NCBI GenBank assembly: GCA_009927255.1
Contig: RFNJ01000125.1
Coordinates: 1 to 46,246, forward strand
Source of the DNA: Pseudomonadota bacterium
GTDB lineage: Bacteria; Pseudomonadota; Alphaproteobacteria; UBA2136; UBA6156
Direction: 5' to 3'
Length of the DNA: 46,246 bases
Shown here: one piece after another, positions 20,695 through 30,672 of the stretch
Position numbering within the stretch: position 1 is the stretch's first letter
Layout: the number at the start of each line of letters is the position of its first letter
The notes under the pieces: model-generated
What the model was told of the DNA's origin: nothing
Databases searched by the model: none
The model's input: the letters and a program-made list of their open reading frames with translations, nothing else
Position numbers and translations under genes: made by a program

Positions 20695-20881
20695 TGGCGG
20701 CGCCTTTCTCTCAAAATCGACCCATCCTCAGCTACGTGGCACTGTTGTGTCAAGCCAAACTATCCCTATGGCCGGTTATCCCGTGGCTTAACAATCACTT
20801 GACATATCTGCCATCTTTTTGCAAAACCATTGCTACGAGGCACCACCTATCCGTTCAACCCCGCCTCGTTGGAGACAGTCG

Positions 20882-21232
20882 ATGTCTAACATTGTTGCCA
20901 TGCCTAAAGCTTTTGGCAAAAAAAAGCCGTTTGTTAGGACCCCCATTGCCGCTGGTTTTAGTAGCATGTTCTATAAAGATCGTCCGCCACGGCCAGTGTT
21001 TATCAATTACAGTCGAGACCCTGATATTCATCAGCGTATTTTCAAGCTCTTGCAAACCCAGGGTGCCATGCCGCTGATGGACATTCAAACCAACCTTGGT
21101 TGCGAGACTGGGAGCGATGAAAACGTGGTTGCCACGGCTCTCTCTGCCCTGCTGTTGAAAGGAACTGTATGTGAAAGCGGCAGGTTCTCAAGAATTGGCG
21201 GCGTCCGCTACCCCCGCTACCGGTTGGCTTAA
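20882..21232 (+). CDS. Small hypothetical protein, possible winged-helix DNA binder, inserted between clpP and clpX on the opposite strand
   Basis: GGAGA SD 8 nt upstream of the ATG at 20882, with its own terminator at 21273. IHQRIFKLLQTQGAMPLMDIQTNLG...VATALSALLLKGTV...RYRL resembles a wHTH layout. That reading is inference only. Confidence 0.45.
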   Translation: MSNIVAMPKAFGKKKPFVRTPIAAGFSSMFYKDRPPRPVFINYSRDPDIHQRIFKLLQTQGAMPLMDIQTNLGCETGSDENVVATALSALLLKGTVCESGRFSRIGGVRYPRYRLA

Positions 21233-21272
21233 CGCTGCTAACTTGGCGAGCAAGGAGCAAAGCTCTACACTT

Positions 21273-21299
21273 CCCCTGCCACTAGGCAGGGGATTTTTT
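21273..21299 (+). terminator. Rho-independent terminator
   Basis: cccctgcc-acta-ggcagggg stem followed by attttttc. Confidence 0.7.
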
Positions 21300-21314
21300 C
21301 ACATTATCTGCCGC

Positions 21315-21941
21315 CTACTTCTTCTTCCCCACTTCACTGCGCTTCACCAACACATGGTCAACCAGCCCATATTTCTGTGCTTCGGCGGCGGTCATGAAGT
21401 TGTCACGTTCGGTGTCTTCGGCAATTTTCGCCATGCTTTGGCCAGTGTGGCCCGCCAAAATACTGTTAATCATATCCCGCGTGCGCTTAATTTCCTCGGC
21501 CTGAATCAAAATATCCGTCGCCTGCCCCTGCGCCCCGCCCAACGGCTGATGAATCATCACCCGCCCATTGCTGAGGGCATAGCGCTTGCCCTTCGCCCCA
21601 CCGGCCAGCAACACCGCACCCATGCTCGCCGCCTGCCCCACCACAATGGTCGAAACATCGCACTTAATATACTGCATCGTGTCATAAATCGCCATCCCTG
21701 CTGTTACCACCCCGCCGGGGCTGTTAATATAAAGGCTGATGTCCGCTTCGGGGTTTTCGCTCTCCAAAAACAGCAACTGCGCCACAATCAAATTCGCCAT
21801 GTGGTCTTCCACTTGGCCGGTACAGAACACTACACGCTCCTTCAGCAAGCGGCTATAAATATCATAGGCGCGCTCGCCGCGTGCGGTTTGTTCCACCACC
21901 ATTGGCACCAGTTGGGCCATTAGTTCATCGCGCGTCATCAT
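21315..21941 (-). CDS. clpP: ATP-dependent Clp protease proteolytic subunit
   Basis: Typical ClpP sequence ([57 protein letters not shown]). Confidence 0.95.
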
Positions 21942-21971
21942 CCGTATTCTCCTGTTGTTTTTATTTTTGTT

Positions 21972-28401: not shown

Positions 28402-28537
28402 AAAAAACTTTTACCACACCCACTTGAAACCACCAAAAACATAAGTTAATAAAAGGGCCGTTCGGCAGCGGCCCACCCAACCACCCCGCTGCCGGACTTT
28501 TTTGTTTCTTTCATTCATCAACCAGCCCTCCCTACCC

Positions 28538-28566
28538 TTGACAATCAACTTGCTAGCAAGCATAAG
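28538..28566 (+). promoter_or_regulatory. Sigma70-like promoter candidate for tRNA-Val
   Basis: TTGACA (28538-28543), a 17-nt spacer, then CATAAG (28561-28566), 12 nt before the tRNA 5' end. The spacer contains the perfect palindrome CTTGCTAGCAAG. Confidence 0.4.
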
Positions 28567-28578
28567 CGGCGCTGTTAC

Positions 28579-28653
28579 GGGAAGTTAGCTCAGCGGTAGA
28601 GCACAGCATTCACATTGCTGGGGTCATAGGTTCAAATCCTATACTTCCCACCA
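28579..28653 (+). tRNA. tRNA-Val (anticodon CAC)
   Basis: Acceptor GGGAAGT/ACTTCCC, anticodon loop TTCACAT, T-loop GGTTCAAATCC, encoded CCA. 75 nt. Confidence 0.85.
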
Positions 28654-28718
28654 GCATTTTTTGCTTTGTGAACAAAGTGAACTTAGCAAAAAAGCTGCCC
28701 CAGCTTAGGCTGGGGCCC
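28654..28718. repeat. Copy of the palindromic repeat family, inverted relative to the 18.6-kb array, abutting the tRNA-Val 3' end
   Basis: gcattttttgctttgtgaacaaagtgaacttagcaaaaaagctg + gccccagc-ttag-gctggggc aligns with the reverse complement of unit 3 at 18781-18846. It has the same position and orientation relative to the tRNA CCA end. Confidence 0.75.
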
Positions 28719-28749
28719 ACGTCCCTCCAACTTTTCCAAAAAGGCCCCC

Positions 28750-30672
28750 ATGCTCACCATCTCCAACCTCACCTACCGCATTGCCGGCCGCACGATTCTC
28801 GAAAACACCAGTGCCGTGGTGCAGCAGGGCTGGAAAGTTGGCGTGGTTGGCCCGAATGGTGCGGGGAAATCCACGCTGTTCAAGCTGATTGCCGGCGAAC
28901 TCCATGCCGACAGCGGCGAGATTCAACTTGCTAGCCAGCACACCATCGGCATGGTGCGCCAAGATATCCGCGCCGATGACACGCCCCTGCTAGATATTGT
29001 GCTAGAGGCCGACACCGAGCGCACCGAATTGCTGAAAGCCGCCGAAACCGAAGCCGACCCCTACAAAATTGCCGATATTTACACCCGCCTGGGCGAAATT
29101 GATGCCTATGCCGCCCCCGCCCGCGCCAGCACCATTCTCGCGGGCCTTGGGTTTAAGGAGACCGACCTCTCCCAACCGATCAAAGCCTTCTCGGGCGGCT
29201 GGCGGATGCGCGTCGCACTCGCCGCCGCACTGTTCCAACAGCCCGATTTTTTGTTGCTCGATGAACCGACTAACCACCTCGATTTGGAAGCCATTATGTG
29301 GCTGGAAAACTACCTGCAAACCTACCCCAAAACCATCCTGATTATCTCCCACGACCGCGACCTGCTCAACACCTGCATCACCCACGTGATTCACGTTGAG
29401 AACCAAAAGCTTACCGCCTACACCGGCAACTATAACAGCTTTGAGCGCGAGCGTGCCGAAAAGCTGATGAGCCAGCAAAAACTGCACGAAAAACAGCAAG
29501 CCCAGCGCGCCCACATGCAAGCGTTTGTGGATCGGTTCAAGGCCAAAGCCAGCAAAGCCAAACAAGCACAAAGCCGCCTGAAAGCGCTGGAAAAAATGGA
29601 CGTGGTGGATGCCGTGATGGCCGAACGCACCGTCAAATTCACCTTCCCGCAGCCCGAAGAGCTGGCACCGCCCATTCTTAGCGTGTTCGAAGCCGACATT
29701 GGCTACACCCCCGGCAAACCGGTGCTGCGCGGTGTGGATGAACGAATTGATATGGATGATCGCATTGCGCTGTTGGGCGCCAACGGCAACGGTAAATCCA
29801 CCCTCATCAAGCTCATCGCTGGCAAGCTGGAGCCACTCAAAGGCAGCACCGCCAAGTCCTCCAAACTGCGCATCGGCTACTTCTCGCAGCATCAAGCCGA
29901 AGAGCTGGATGTGAGTGAAACCCCCTACCAAGCGATGGCCCGCGTAGTCGGCAGCAGCGGCGCCAACGCCGTGGCCACCACGCGTGAATCCGCCGTGCGC
30001 GCCATTTTGGGCCGCTTTGGCTTTAGCAAGCCCTTGGCCGATAACCGCATCAGCAGCCTCAGCGGTGGTGAAAAAGCCCGTCTGCTGTTTGCATTAATGA
30101 GCTACAACGCCCCCCATCTGCTGCTGCTGGATGAACCGACCAACCACCTCGATATGGATACCCGCGAAGCCCTGGTGCAAGCACTCAACGCCTATCAAGG
30201 CGCCGTCATCATCGTCAGCCACGACCCCTCCATGGTGGAGCGCGTAGCGGATCGGCTCTGGCTGGTCAGCAACGGCAGCGTCCAACCGTTCGATGGCGAC
30301 CTTGCCGCCTACCGCCAACACATCGTCACCCAACGCCGGCAAGAAAAACGCGACCAGAAATCAGCAAGTCAGGCCGCCAGCAGCAGCGCGGTAAGCACCG
30401 AACCCACCCCCAGCAAAAAAGAGCAGCAAGCCGCCCTCAAAGCCAAACGTCAACGCCACCCCAAACTCCACGAAGCCATCCAACTCGCCGAAAAGAACCT
30501 CAGCAAACTTACCCGCGAACAAAAAGAAACCGAATTGGCGTTGGCCGCACCCAACCTGCCCAAATCCGAACTCAAAGACCTCCAATTCACCTACGCGAAT
30601 TTACAAAAGGAAATTGAGGAGGCGGAGGCCGAACTCCTTCAAGCCATGGAAGCGTTTGATAACGCCAGCTAG
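28750..30672 (+). CDS. ABC-F family ATPase (two ABC domains, no TM; Uup/YheS-like with a C-terminal coiled coil)
   Basis: Two Walker A motifs (GPNGAGKST, GANGNGKST), two signatures (FSGGWRMR, LSGGEKAR), two Walker B motifs (LLLDEPTNHLD twice), an inter-domain linker and a Lys/Glu-rich tail. Confidence 0.9.
   Translation: MLTISNLTYRIAGRTILENTSAVVQQGWKVGVVGPNGAGKSTLFKLIAGELHADSGEIQLASQHTIGMVRQDIRADDTPLLDIVLEADTERTELLKAAETEADPYKIADIYTRLGEIDAYAAPARASTILAGLGFKETDLSQPIKAFSGGWRMRVALAAALFQQPDFLLLDEPTNHLDLEAIMWLENYLQTYPKTILIISHDRDLLNTCITHVIHVENQKLTAYTGNYNSFERERAEKLMSQQKLHEKQQAQRAHMQAFVDRFKAKASKAKQAQSRLKALEKMDVVDAVMAERTVKFTFPQPEELAPPILSVFEADIGYTPGKPVLRGVDERIDMDDRIALLGANGNGKSTLIKLIAGKLEPLKGSTAKSSKLRIGYFSQHQAEELDVSETPYQAMARVVGSSGANAVATTRESAVRAILGRFGFSKPLADNRISSLSGGEKARLLFALMSYNAPHLLLLDEPTNHLDMDTREALVQALNAYQGAVIIVSHDPSMVERVADRLWLVSNGSVQPFDGDLAAYRQHIVTQRRQEKRDQKSASQAASSSAVSTEPTPSKKEQQAALKAKRQRHPKLHEAIQLAEKNLSKLTREQKETELALAAPNLPKSELKDLQFTYANLQKEIEEAEAELLQAMEAFDNAS

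Follow-up and report, generated by a model that had tools for sequence, protein, structure and literature searches.

A mosaic reversal of strand skew within an inverted clpX-ligA segment of a strongly strand-biased bacterial genome

Whole-genome skew values usually do not exceed 0.2, and mosaic tracts of homologous recombination occur in bacteria. In Drosophila inversions, gene flux into an inverted segment is lowest near its breakpoints. Inverted genes have been called from their individual skew values (PMC6220195), and inversions are a recognized source of false skew shift points (PMC3269016). Amelioration, the drift of DNA in compositional disequilibrium toward the resident equilibrium, goes back to Lawrence and Ochman 1997 (cited in PMC3269016). 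The locus described here shares with inversion-type skew reversals a gene order flipped relative to that of relatives and switched genes that keep the skew of their former strand. It differs in that the skew edges (20.7 and 30.6 kb) are displaced from the probable breakpoints (19.37 and 32.10 kb), the segment ends have re-equilibrated while old and young tracts follow one another in the interior, and the strand bias is very strong. Events that leave such an inversion footprint are known; what is unusual is the mosaic of two ages and how large the bias is.

We analyzed a stretch of 46,246 nucleotides (the window), so that skew was read on one contig of an incomplete replicon. Counted over all sites, GC skew on the + strand is +0.393 at positions 1-19368 and +0.327 at 32100-46246 versus -0.099 in the block at 20695-30672. 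A 1-kb profile shows the sign reversal in the block, and the cumulative G-C curve peaks locally at 20700 and bottoms out at 30594, essentially where the original prediction had placed the sign changes (~20.7 and ~30.67 kb). Third codon positions have a G:C count of 5446:1376 in the flanks versus 781:910 in the block (Fisher p=1e-156), and a two-state hidden Markov model (HMM) on third positions called no reversed segment in the flanks at switch probabilities of 1e-3 to 1e-6. Minus-strand genes outside the block are also G-rich on the + strand at third positions (+0.40 to +0.69); thus, the bias tracks the strand and not gene direction, as had been proposed, and the long antisense open reading frames (ORFs) cited with that proposal all exist. 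The host is a freshwater bacterium, and the base composition of its two DNA strands is very strongly unequal, with a GC3 skew of 0.6-0.78. The model favored below, at about even odds, takes the + strand as the leading strand of replication in a lineage whose mutational bias between strands is very strong.

We observed that gene order at this locus departs from that of relatives. In relatives L012 and L014, ligA, tig, clpP, clpX, lon, and hupB follow in that order on one strand. In the nearest relative (sample SRR20069377), contigs L017 and L037 carry ligA-memb-tig-MT and MT-clpP-clpX (memb, a membrane-protein gene; MT, a Methyltransf_11/Trm112p-like methyltransferase gene) with a G-rich coding strand (skew, +0.35 to +0.45). 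The one-strand order of the relatives is ligA-tig-MT-clpP-clpX-lon-hupB, and here ligA through clpX lie opposite to lon-hupB. This comparison supports an inversion and agrees with the claim that the tig-clpP-clpX-lon-hupB order is broken. If the flip is reversed, clpX comes to lie immediately before the promoter region of lon, which is the arrangement in L014. The segment contains clpX, clpP, MT, tig, tRNA-His, memb, tRNA-Leu, ligA, tRNA-Val, ABC-F, a 247-aa gene, and comF; the placement of ABC-F next to ligA was found in no other relative examined, a point against the model favored below. The features that define the segment are as follows.

19375-32095, no strand: inverted segment (~12.7 kb), from synteny with L012, L014, L017, and L037, with the ends placed by the inverted repeat
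19344-19374, - strand: left arm of a 31-nt inverted repeat, comprising the last clpX codon and stop (GCA TAA), an A-run, and a hairpin
19369-20694, - strand: clpX, flipped relative to lon, with third positions that fit its present strand (+ strand GC3 skew, +0.48)
30673-32093, both strands: the 247-aa gene (-) and comF (+), inside the probable inversion, with conforming third positions
32096-32126, + strand: right arm of the 31-nt inverted repeat, two bases past the comF stop and ~350 nt ahead of the conserved promoter region of lon
32471-35626, + strand: lon and hupB, outside the inversion, used as the divergence baseline against the nearest relative

The original prediction took the skew edges at 20.7 and 30.67 kb as the ends of the rearrangement and the left edge as separating clpP from clpX. 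The latter two genes are still adjacent and co-oriented, 620 bp apart, and the skew alone changes between them. The inversion most likely runs from 19375 to 32095 and includes clpX, and its true ends are likely the repeat arms at 19344-19374 and 32096-32126. The arms are 84% complementary (E=1e-5 for the pair), the 17-mer GCATAAAAACAGGCRGC occurs in the window at these two sites alone, and a compensating change from A/T to G/C distinguishes the two stems. From the + strand, the left arm appears as the hairpin plus T-run downstream of usg. We read the right arm as a putative remnant copy of the 3' end of clpX. In L014, a similar CATAAAA-plus-GC-hairpin directly follows clpX, and the CTCTTGTCACTC...TTTGAGTGCTA motif before lon is shared. 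Two points count against the repeat: it is short, and its hairpin could look like that of other terminators.

The reversed block had been described as one unit from 20695 to 30672. Its net reversal and its edges stand; its uniformity does not. The block is made up of four reversed tracts (6.9 kb; GC3 skew, -0.27 to -0.48) with three conforming ones lying between them (3.0 kb; +0.31 to +0.50). The tract limits come from the HMM, and the segmentation is stable across three orders of magnitude of switch probability.

20692-22005, - strand: reversed tract R1, the clpX-clpP spacer (containing a called 116-aa ORF on +) and clpP; GC3 skew, -0.29
22008-22704, - strand: conforming tract L1, the 3' two-thirds of MT; GC3 skew, +0.50
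22707-24736, - strand: reversed tract R2, the MT 5' end, a low-GC insertion, and most of tig; GC3 skew, -0.27
24739-25714, - strand: conforming tract L2, the 5' 190 nt of tig, tRNA-His, and most of memb; GC3 skew, +0.31
25717-26434, - strand: reversed tract R3, the memb 5' end, tRNA-Leu, an intergenic region, and the last 34 ligA codons; GC3 skew, -0.48
26437-27748, - strand: conforming tract L3, the middle and 3' part of ligA; GC3 skew, +0.49 (+0.66 in 26437-27286)
27751-30594, no strand: reversed tract R4, the 5' 650 nt of ligA, tRNA-Val, a palindromic repeat copy, and ABC-F; GC3 skew, -0.40
30669-30672, no strand: CTAG, shared by the overlapping stop codons of ABC-F (+) and the 247-aa gene (-, 30669-31412)

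No tract reaches the mean GC3 skew of -0.6 expected from a fresh inversion. The tracts are 0.7-2.8 kb long, and two outer and six inner switches fall within 10 kb, with in-frame junctions inside genes. The intragenic switches were detected in ligA (p=3e-20 and p=4e-7), in MT (p=7e-5 for the third-position G:C difference between its 3' and 5' parts), in memb (p=1e-4), and in tig (p=2e-3). The stronger ligA switch separates a G3:C3 count of 213:72 in tract L3 from one of 37:98 in the 5' part. Skew leaps from -0.71 to +1.00 over ~100 nt in the ligA region and from ~+0.5 to -0.45 inside ligA itself. Because these limits lie inside intact genes, they are not inversion breakpoints and must be junctions of homologous exchange. 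At its outer edges, the mosaic stops within ~75 nt of a gene end (the start of clpX on one side, the stop of ABC-F on the other), a placement that a structural breakpoint would also explain. The right-hand switch had been placed at CTAG: the convergent stop overlap is confirmed and present in five independent contigs, but it coincides with the switch only to within ~75 nt.

Divergence from the nearest relative is bimodal. Synonymous third-position identity is 0.62 in the reversed tracts, close to the lon/hupB baseline of 0.66, and 0.34 in the conforming tracts; in conforming ligA it is 0.20-0.21, as between unrelated sequences with opposing biases, for which 0.28-0.31 is expected. The baseline genes are 0.96-0.99 identical in amino acids and 0.86-0.90 in nucleotides. 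Against L037, clpP (tract R1) has identities of 0.97 (amino acids), 0.85 (nucleotides), and 0.64 (synonymous third positions), and the MT 3' part (tract L1) has 0.84, 0.71, and 0.41, with a coding-strand skew of +0.74 in L037 versus -0.50 here. Nucleotide identity of tract R3 to L017 is mostly 77-97% versus 50-65% in the neighboring tracts, falling to 51-61% at an indel/repeat zone (26093-25981). In all four genes compared, amino acid identity drops from the reversed to the conforming part (conforming versus reversed: MT, 0.84 versus 0.93; ligA, 0.74 versus 0.82; memb, 0.62 versus 0.65; tig, 0.89 versus 0.91). First-position coding-strand skew is +0.33 in reversed tracts, +0.17 in conforming tracts, and +0.06 in native minus-strand genes. 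From L017 to the window, third-position differences in tig are asymmetric (G>A, 48 versus 13 A>G; T>C, 25 versus 11 for the reverse; G>C, 15 versus 1), which fits partial decay after a flip.

We favor, with a probability of about 0.5, an old and largely re-equilibrated inversion that received younger tracts by homologous exchange with noninverted relatives. The skew pattern and its reality, the inversion relative to relatives, the switches inside genes, and the bimodal divergence are observed; the precise ends, the sequence of events, and the roles of resident and imported sequence class belong to the model. On this reading, ~12.7 kb (about 19375-32095, clpX through comF) would have flipped long ago, most likely by an exchange at, or giving rise to, the 31-nt repeat that now bounds the segment. 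The flip would have put ligA, tig, clpP, and clpX head-on to replication and parted clpX from lon, and the reversed mutation pressure would then have rewritten synonymous sites. The parts that now conform are clpX (above), the 247-aa gene and comF (+0.47 and +0.59 to +0.75), and the three internal tracts; in this respect the proposal of a simply recent inversion fell short, since only the other four tracts are young. First and second positions of comF are still of the lagging type (-0.11 and -0.16). The four tracts in the central 10 kb would keep a half-decayed leading-strand signature, which implies a time in the present orientation 5 to 10 times shorter. DNA from relatives with the ancestral orientation may have recombined into the segment once or repeatedly, and since exchanged tracts cannot cross the breakpoints, this would explain the old-type sequence at both ends.

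This history resembles amelioration in its drift to the resident equilibrium, with third positions leading and first and second positions lagging (comF and the conforming tracts). It differs in that the disequilibrium is a strand switch within the same genome and not foreign G+C, and in that two ages occur within single genes. By analogy, the tract lengths, junctions, and bimodal divergence may be compared with recombination mosaics and with gene flux into inversions, and the old-type ends with the low flux near inversion breakpoints. Unlike in such mosaics, we found no donor sequence for imported tracts, and divergence is driven by strand bias and not by time alone. Nucleotide identity between conforming and reversed versions is only 50-71%, well below the usual exchange limit. 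This is too low for ordinary RecA exchange and counts against the model, which would need either continuing exchange that kept some tracts donor-like or rare events at short conserved stretches. The nearest relative is near synonymous saturation (0.66 observed versus 0.59 expected for unrelated sequences) and so cannot reveal which class was imported; that the reversed tracts are the imports is what the favored model suggests.

Could the skew edges themselves be breakpoints? An inner inversion of exactly 20.7-30.67 kb could be recent, with clpX, the 247-aa gene, and comF long in their present orientation beforehand and the three conforming tracts imported from a lineage with long-established lagging-strand copies. 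The outer switches do lie at gene ends (the G-C extremes given above; the HMM sets its edges at the start of clpX and ~75 nt short of the ABC-F stop codon), and 70% of the block consists of reversed tracts at baseline divergence, as expected of recently flipped resident DNA. However, at least three inversions are needed: clpX must first part from clpP, and the last event must recreate exactly the ancestral arrangement found in L037, with clpP, the spacer, and clpX adjoining and in one orientation. Inverted repeats between the two switch zones do not exceed 9 nt, in contrast to the outer pair. The difficulty of low-identity recombination is equal to that of the favored model, and an unseen donor lineage that already had the same arrangement is demanded. 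We therefore regard this history as doubtful.

Improbable, to a further degree, is an inverted duplication in which gene conversion from a co-oriented original repeatedly reset patches until the original was recently lost. It would give in-frame intragenic junctions without exchange between lineages and would fit a duplicated clpX 3' end at both segment ends. However, a ~10-kb housekeeping duplicate would have to be kept long term (relatives have contigs of 1.0-1.3 Mb), the copies would diverge past the reach of conversion as in the other models, and a second copy is not visible: the 90% clusters of tig and clpP contain this genome and the nearest relative only.

A single inversion whose tracts re-equilibrated at unequal speeds, through expression level or codon selection, is very unlikely. 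Although the less re-equilibrated genes include clpP and tig, for which high expression is expected, ABC-F is among the least re-equilibrated and is not thus expected. The abrupt jumps in and around ligA would imply an effective-age gap of at least 5- to 10-fold within one gene.

We give little credence to a horizontally acquired island from a source with different or weaker strand bias. The block does contain three tRNA genes, a palindromic repeat after tRNA-Val, and one low-GC insertion. However, its genes are core housekeeping genes in the order of relatives, their G+C is 0.54-0.58 versus 0.48-0.65 in the flanks (insertion apart), no integrase or other mobility gene was found in the block, and the divergence of the reversed tracts from the nearest relative is at the baseline level.

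The window is one contig from a metagenome assembly binned as a genome, and an assembly or binning chimera had been suggested; we consider this, or a consensus of two coexisting strains, scarcely credible. Nine contigs from six runs or assemblies made with different pipelines (Logan SRR096386 and SRR096387; ENA ERZ937303, ERZ28575597, and ERZ28576604; NCBI GCA_009924635.1) are 99.96-100% identical and jointly cover 17564-36367, every switch included. The two sequence classes are too unlike to have long k-mers in common, and the clusters described above contain no alternative haplotype. A replication origin or terminus, or a near-terminus zone of variable fork meeting, has a negligible chance: the two sign changes have terminus and origin polarities, but skew is strongly positive in both flanks, the profile is a sharp mosaic and not a gradient, and we found no perfect DnaA box or box cluster near either edge and no dif-like site at up to 3 mismatches. 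The locus is thus a real and unusually legible case of a known event type, neither an assembly error nor a replication landmark.

The low-GC insertion in tract R2 lies in the spacer between tig and MT.

23026-23604, + strand: low-GC tig/MT spacer, ~35% GC in the ORF

The corresponding spacer in L017 is 33 nt. Here, ~545 nt are inserted sequence with an orphan 133-aa ORF (23178-23579) that had no Pfam match.

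In the two relatives that carry a collinear cluster, GCA_016125035.1 (L012) and GCA_005768725.1 (L014; Tig 62 to 65% identical), ligA, tRNA-Leu, tRNA-His, tig, clpP, clpX, lon, and hupB lie on a single strand. A methyltransferase gene sits between tig and clpP in GCA_016125035.1 but not in GCA_005768725.1 (a 1.02-Mb contig). The nearest relative found was the population of Logan sample SRR20069377, whose Tig is 90% identical and which is represented by three short contigs.

Gene content of the contigs of the nearest relative.
L017: ligA 3' end, tRNA-Leu, membrane-protein gene, tRNA-His, tig, methyltransferase gene
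L037: methyltransferase gene, clpP, spacer, clpX 5' end
L038: lon, hupB

All of these genes lie on a coding strand whose skew is +0.33 to +0.45, and the cluster is co-oriented with replication in this relative. In the window, the minus strand carries clpX, clpP, the Methyltransf_11/Trm112p-like methyltransferase gene, tig, the membrane-protein gene, and ligA, and the plus strand carries lon and hupB. By gene order, the cluster is inverted relative to its counterparts, clpX included. Although the original prediction held that clpP and clpX had been separated, they are still neighbors and both are inverted. The spacer between them is variable (window 20882-21232, + strand; L012 13194-15369; L014 13609-13875; L037 1436-2561), with a different unannotated open reading frame (ORF) in each. 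The window's spacer ORF (116 aa) had no match in a Pfam search, and only ~110 nt adjoining clpX could be aligned to the nearest relative. Scans of the genome and metagenome collections returned nothing closer than the nearest relative: the best match to LigA in the genome collection was 49% identical, the best full-length match to Tig in the metagenomes was 37% identical, and protein searches with LigA and ABC-F gave nothing between ~72% and 100% identity. In a distant 1.26-Mb genome tig and ABC-F lie in unrelated contexts, as does ABC-F in two other relatives.

The + strand of the window, which is an entire 46,246-bp contig of a metagenome-assembled genome, is strongly G- and T-rich. Over 1-19368 and 32100-46246 the all-site GC skew of this strand is +0.393 and +0.327, respectively, and flank genes other than hupB have third-position (GC3) skews of +0.36 to +0.75. 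The five minus-strand flank genes share this G-richness of the + strand (GC3 skew of the + strand, +0.40 to +0.69). Thus, the bias tracks the strand and not the direction of the gene, which is the behavior expected for a replication-associated bias. Transcription as its cause is out, since the minus-strand flank genes obey the strand and the coding strand of ABC-F is C-rich. Codon selection in highly expressed genes was also rejected, as a C preference of the hupB type would drive clpP and tig the opposite way. The hupB gene itself (35354-35626; L038 2712-2984) favors C over G at its third positions, although it is outside the inversion and reads in the direction of replication. Its GC3 skew of -0.25 in the window and -0.17 in the nearest relative opposes the genome-wide bias, probably reflecting selection on the codons of a highly expressed gene.

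The bias here is very large next to genome-wide skews, which usually do not exceed 0.2. Across the window flanks and the three contigs of the nearest relative, the all-site skew is +0.33 to +0.45 and the GC3 skew is +0.5 to +0.78; the extreme bias is common to this sublineage. In contrast, the skew is weak in L012 and L014 (-0.11 and 0.00), suggesting that replication or repair changed in this lineage specifically. On the leading strand, the changes indicated by third positions are C>T, A>G, and C>G. Real genes are faced on the antisense strand by long stop-free ORFs rich in His, Pro, Gln, and Arg, and all of those named in the original prediction are present: 8829-10334, 13156-14184, 32474-33700, 38582-39853, and 45031-46053 on the minus strand and 21171-21923 and 24181-24588 on the plus strand. 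They arise from the bias itself, as few stops occur in the complement of a G/T-rich coding strand, and they could be miscalled as genes.

The block at 20695-30672 has an all-site skew of -0.099, whereas both flanks are positive, and cumulative G-C peaks locally at 20700 and dips to a minimum at 30594, so its predicted coordinates were accurate. The CTAG overlap of two stop codons at 30669-30672 is likewise there. The third-position G:C count is 781:910 in the block, compared with 5446:1376 in the flanks (P = 1e-156). The reversal was confirmed, but its description as a single block was incomplete, for it is a mosaic of tracts whose third positions keep the skew of the former strand (reversed) and tracts whose third positions match the present strand (conforming). 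We segmented third positions with a two-state hidden Markov model (HMM) at switch probabilities of 1e-3 to 1e-6. The segmentation was identical at 1e-4 to 1e-6; 1e-3 added a few short segments and left the outer edges and major tracts unchanged. No reversed segment was called in the ~10,700 codons of the flanks.

Tracts of the mosaic called by the HMM.
20692-22005, reversed, GC3 skew -0.29
22008-22704, conforming, GC3 skew +0.50
22707-24736, reversed, GC3 skew -0.27
24739-25714, conforming, GC3 skew +0.31
25717-26434, reversed, GC3 skew -0.48
26437-27748, conforming, GC3 skew +0.49
27751-30594, reversed, GC3 skew -0.40

The interior mean of -0.10 is made of tracts of -0.27 to -0.48 and of +0.31 to +0.50, between flanks of the same sign. 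Several of the switches are sharp, in frame, and inside intact genes, namely, ligA, the methyltransferase gene, the membrane-protein gene, and tig. In ligA, G3:C3 is 213:72 in the middle and 37:98 in the 5' part (P = 3e-20), and the last 34 codons switch again relative to the middle (P = 4e-7). The switches in the other three genes had P values of 7e-5, 1e-4, and 2e-3, respectively, and shifts as sharp as -0.71 to +1.00 within ~100 nt occur. No tract average reaches the fresh-flip level of -0.6, although 60-codon windows in tig reach -0.72 to -0.76.

The pattern is not a product of assembly. Nine contigs from six runs or assemblies made with differing pipelines (Logan SRR096386 and SRR096387; ENA ERZ937303, ERZ28575597, and ERZ28576604; NCBI GCA_009924635.1) are 99.96 to 100% identical to the window and jointly span 17564-36367, which includes every switch point. 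Since independent assemblies reproduce the junctions, the chimera that the original prediction had offered as one explanation is rejected at the level of assembled contigs. The two sequence classes are too dissimilar for an assembler to have merged them, and the 90% protein clusters of tig and clpP held no alternative haplotype. One difference was seen: contig L018 of the Logan SRR096386 assembly carries at 2432-2572 (~28579 in the window) 112 extra nt, a partial, aberrant copy of the tRNA-Val 5' half that precedes the normal gene. These nucleotides are missing from the window and from the other assemblies and are either a structural variant or a local assembly artifact at a repeat.

An origin or terminus would have opposite skew signs on its two sides, whereas the flanks here are alike. 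Scans found no perfect DnaA box and no cluster of them near either block edge, and no dif-like site within three mismatches of an Escherichia coli-type consensus, a query that a divergent dif could escape. A replication origin or terminus is therefore rejected, and the terminus-related interpretation proposed earlier falls with it. A horizontally acquired island is also rejected: the G+C content is typical except for an insertion in 23026-23604, the core genes are in the order of the relatives, and no integrase was found in the block. That insertion, in the spacer between tig and the methyltransferase gene, is ~545 nt of low-GC DNA (~35% GC in its ORF) with an orphan 133-aa ORF (23178-23579, + strand) that had no match in a Pfam search; the same spacer is 33 nt in the nearest relative.

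The skew switches at ~20.7 and ~30.6 kb do not coincide with the ends indicated by synteny and repeats, ~19.37 and ~32.10 kb, and clpX is inverted, yet its third positions match the present strand. A 31-nt inverted repeat (26 of 31 bases, 84% complementary) lies at 19344-19374 and 32096-32126, and within the window its 17-mer core occurs at these two sites only. The left arm is made up of the final codon of clpX with its stop codon (GCA TAA), an A-run, and a hairpin, and the right arm lies two bases past the comF stop. The stems differ by a compensating change, and thus both hairpins have been kept. A similar CATAAAA-plus-hairpin lies immediately 3' of clpX in L014, and a motif (CTCTTGTCACTC...TTTGAGTGCTA) that stands ~350 nt rightward of the second arm also precedes lon in that genome. 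Re-flipping 19375-32095 joins clpX in frame to the right-hand copy and restores clpP-clpX-lon-hupB. We infer that the inversion extends over 19375-32095 and that the 31-nt repeat mediated it. The original prediction was thus right in kind, as the gene order of the relatives indicates, but wrong in extent and in age, for the inversion appears to be old. Between the skew switch zones themselves there is no inverted repeat longer than 9 nt.

The region also carries a family of palindromic intergenic repeats of 50 to 90 nt (window 1766-1859, 18613-18698, 18735-18770, 18799-18873, and 28649-28719; L017 840-936), two of which immediately follow the 3' ends of tRNA genes (tRNA-Thr and tRNA-Val). A 52-nt inverted pair with 90% complementarity is formed by the copies at 18799-18850 and 28649-28700, which are separated by 9.8 kb. 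An inversion between them as the sole event was rejected: ABC-F lies outside the pair, yet it is reversed and contiguous with the reversed 5' part of ligA. The pair is a possible substrate for further rearrangement.

We then compared the tracts with the nearest relative, using lon and hupB, outside the inversion, as the baseline (identity of 0.96 to 0.99 for amino acids, 0.86 to 0.90 for nucleotides, and 0.66 for synonymous third positions). For unrelated sequences the expected synonymous third-position identity is 0.59 under the same bias and 0.28 to 0.31 under opposite bias. Reversed tracts are near the baseline at 0.62 overall (0.62 in both clpP and tig). Conforming tracts stand at 0.34 overall (0.20 in ligA), which is saturation under opposite bias. 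In 60-nt windows, nucleotide identity is 72 to 97% over most of the reversed tracts and 50 to 65% in conforming ones, with abrupt changes; the conforming tract of the methyltransferase gene averages 0.71. Divergence is thus bimodal along the region, although this measure depends in part on the skew. Amino acid identity is lower in the conforming than in the reversed part of the methyltransferase gene (0.84 versus 0.93), ligA (0.74 versus 0.82), the membrane-protein gene (0.62 versus 0.65), and tig (0.89 versus 0.91). The first-position skew of the coding strand is +0.33 in reversed tracts, +0.17 in conforming tracts, and +0.06 in native minus-strand genes. Differences between tig and its relative are directional (G>A, 48 versus 13 for A>G; T>C, 25 versus 11; G>C, 15 versus 1), which on the + strand are C>T, A>G, and C>G. 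In a rough calculation with a single-rate relaxation model, taking the relaxation time of third-position composition as the unit, reversed tracts would have spent ~0.1 to 0.35 units in the present orientation and conforming tracts at least 1.4 to 2.3. Dating the tracts against the divergence of the nearest relative failed because the comparison is near synonymous saturation (0.66 observed versus 0.59 expected). In noncoding DNA downstream of ligA, 26181-26300 is 92 to 97% identical to L017, compared with 50 to 85% for neighboring coding DNA. It had no Rfam match and an ordinary folding energy (z = -0.59); a conserved element, regulatory or RNA, or a particularly young tract could account for it.

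Heterogeneous re-equilibration after a single inversion is rejected because of the switches inside genes. A breakpoint cannot fall in an intact gene and mutation would not give such sharp switches; thus, the internal boundaries must be junctions of homologous exchange, where versions of the segment from opposite strands were joined. The simplest history needs a single inversion and proceeds in two steps. The old inversion of 19375-32095 would largely have re-equilibrated, with clpX, the 247-aa gene and comF of its right part, and the three conforming tracts as remnants. DNA from relatives with the ancestral orientation would then have recombined into the inverted segment. Imported tracts must sit wholly within that segment, which fits the old-type sequence at both ends. 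The chief obstacle to this history is that the two classes are now 50 to 71% identical, too low for ordinary RecA-dependent recombination. Continuing exchange might provide a way out, if replaced tracts stayed donor-like and exchangeable and missed tracts were rewritten and locked.

We tentatively propose, at a probability of about 0.3, that in a lineage with such a strong bias an inversion acts as a local barrier to exchange and an accelerator of divergence, leaving a mosaic of two ages in which the old type occupies each breakpoint. Tracts that no longer receive DNA from noninverted relatives would be quickly rewritten, to 50 to 60% nucleotide identity with 62 to 89% amino acid identity retained, and locked out of recombination. 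Tracts still exchanged would remain young. Bacteria would then have an equivalent of the lowered gene flux near eukaryotic inversion breakpoints, and the skew would be a built-in clock dating each recombination tract. The comparison of the tracts covers one near relative, on three short contigs.

A recent inner inversion of 20.7 to 30.67 kb with imported conforming tracts would fit the position of switches at gene ends and the baseline divergence of reversed tracts. We consider it unlikely, as it would take at least three inversions and a chance return of clpP next to clpX, lacks a repeat at its ends, and meets the identical problem of low identity. An inverted duplication followed by gene conversion and later loss of the original copy is possible but distinctly improbable, no second copy having been seen.

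Local skew anomalies and false shift points are established products of inversions (PMC3269016), and inverted genes have been called from the skew of individual genes (PMC6220195). The locus belongs to this known kind, and the type of event is ordinary. It differs from the textbook footprint in that the skew edges do not mark the breakpoints, two discrete ages alternate within genes, and the bias is very large. Because the strand bias of the lineage is so strong, third codon positions serve as a clock for how long a given piece of DNA has been on the strand it now occupies. This clock exposes two features of a usually hidden type: an old, small inversion with its breakpoints gone from the skew, and exchange tracts down to 0.7 kb inside it. 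Inversion breakpoints read from skew switches can be off by more than 1 kb, and a skew anomaly in a metagenome contig need not mean misassembly. The locus is an unusually legible natural experiment in re-equilibration and in recombination into an inversion; with complete genomes of the clade, it could calibrate the re-equilibration rate of strand-switched DNA and measure that recombination.

Two features of the flanks were also observed. A Gly/Ala/Val-rich ORF of 371 aa (16891-18006, + strand) overlaps the His-rich extension of the phaC ORF. It had no match in a Pfam search and is a gene call in an independent assembly, and the bias leaves its putative coding status doubtful. At 36278-36454, in the intergenic DNA after tRNA-Asp, two G-rich direct repeats of 70 nt are 84% identical and lie 107 nt apart.
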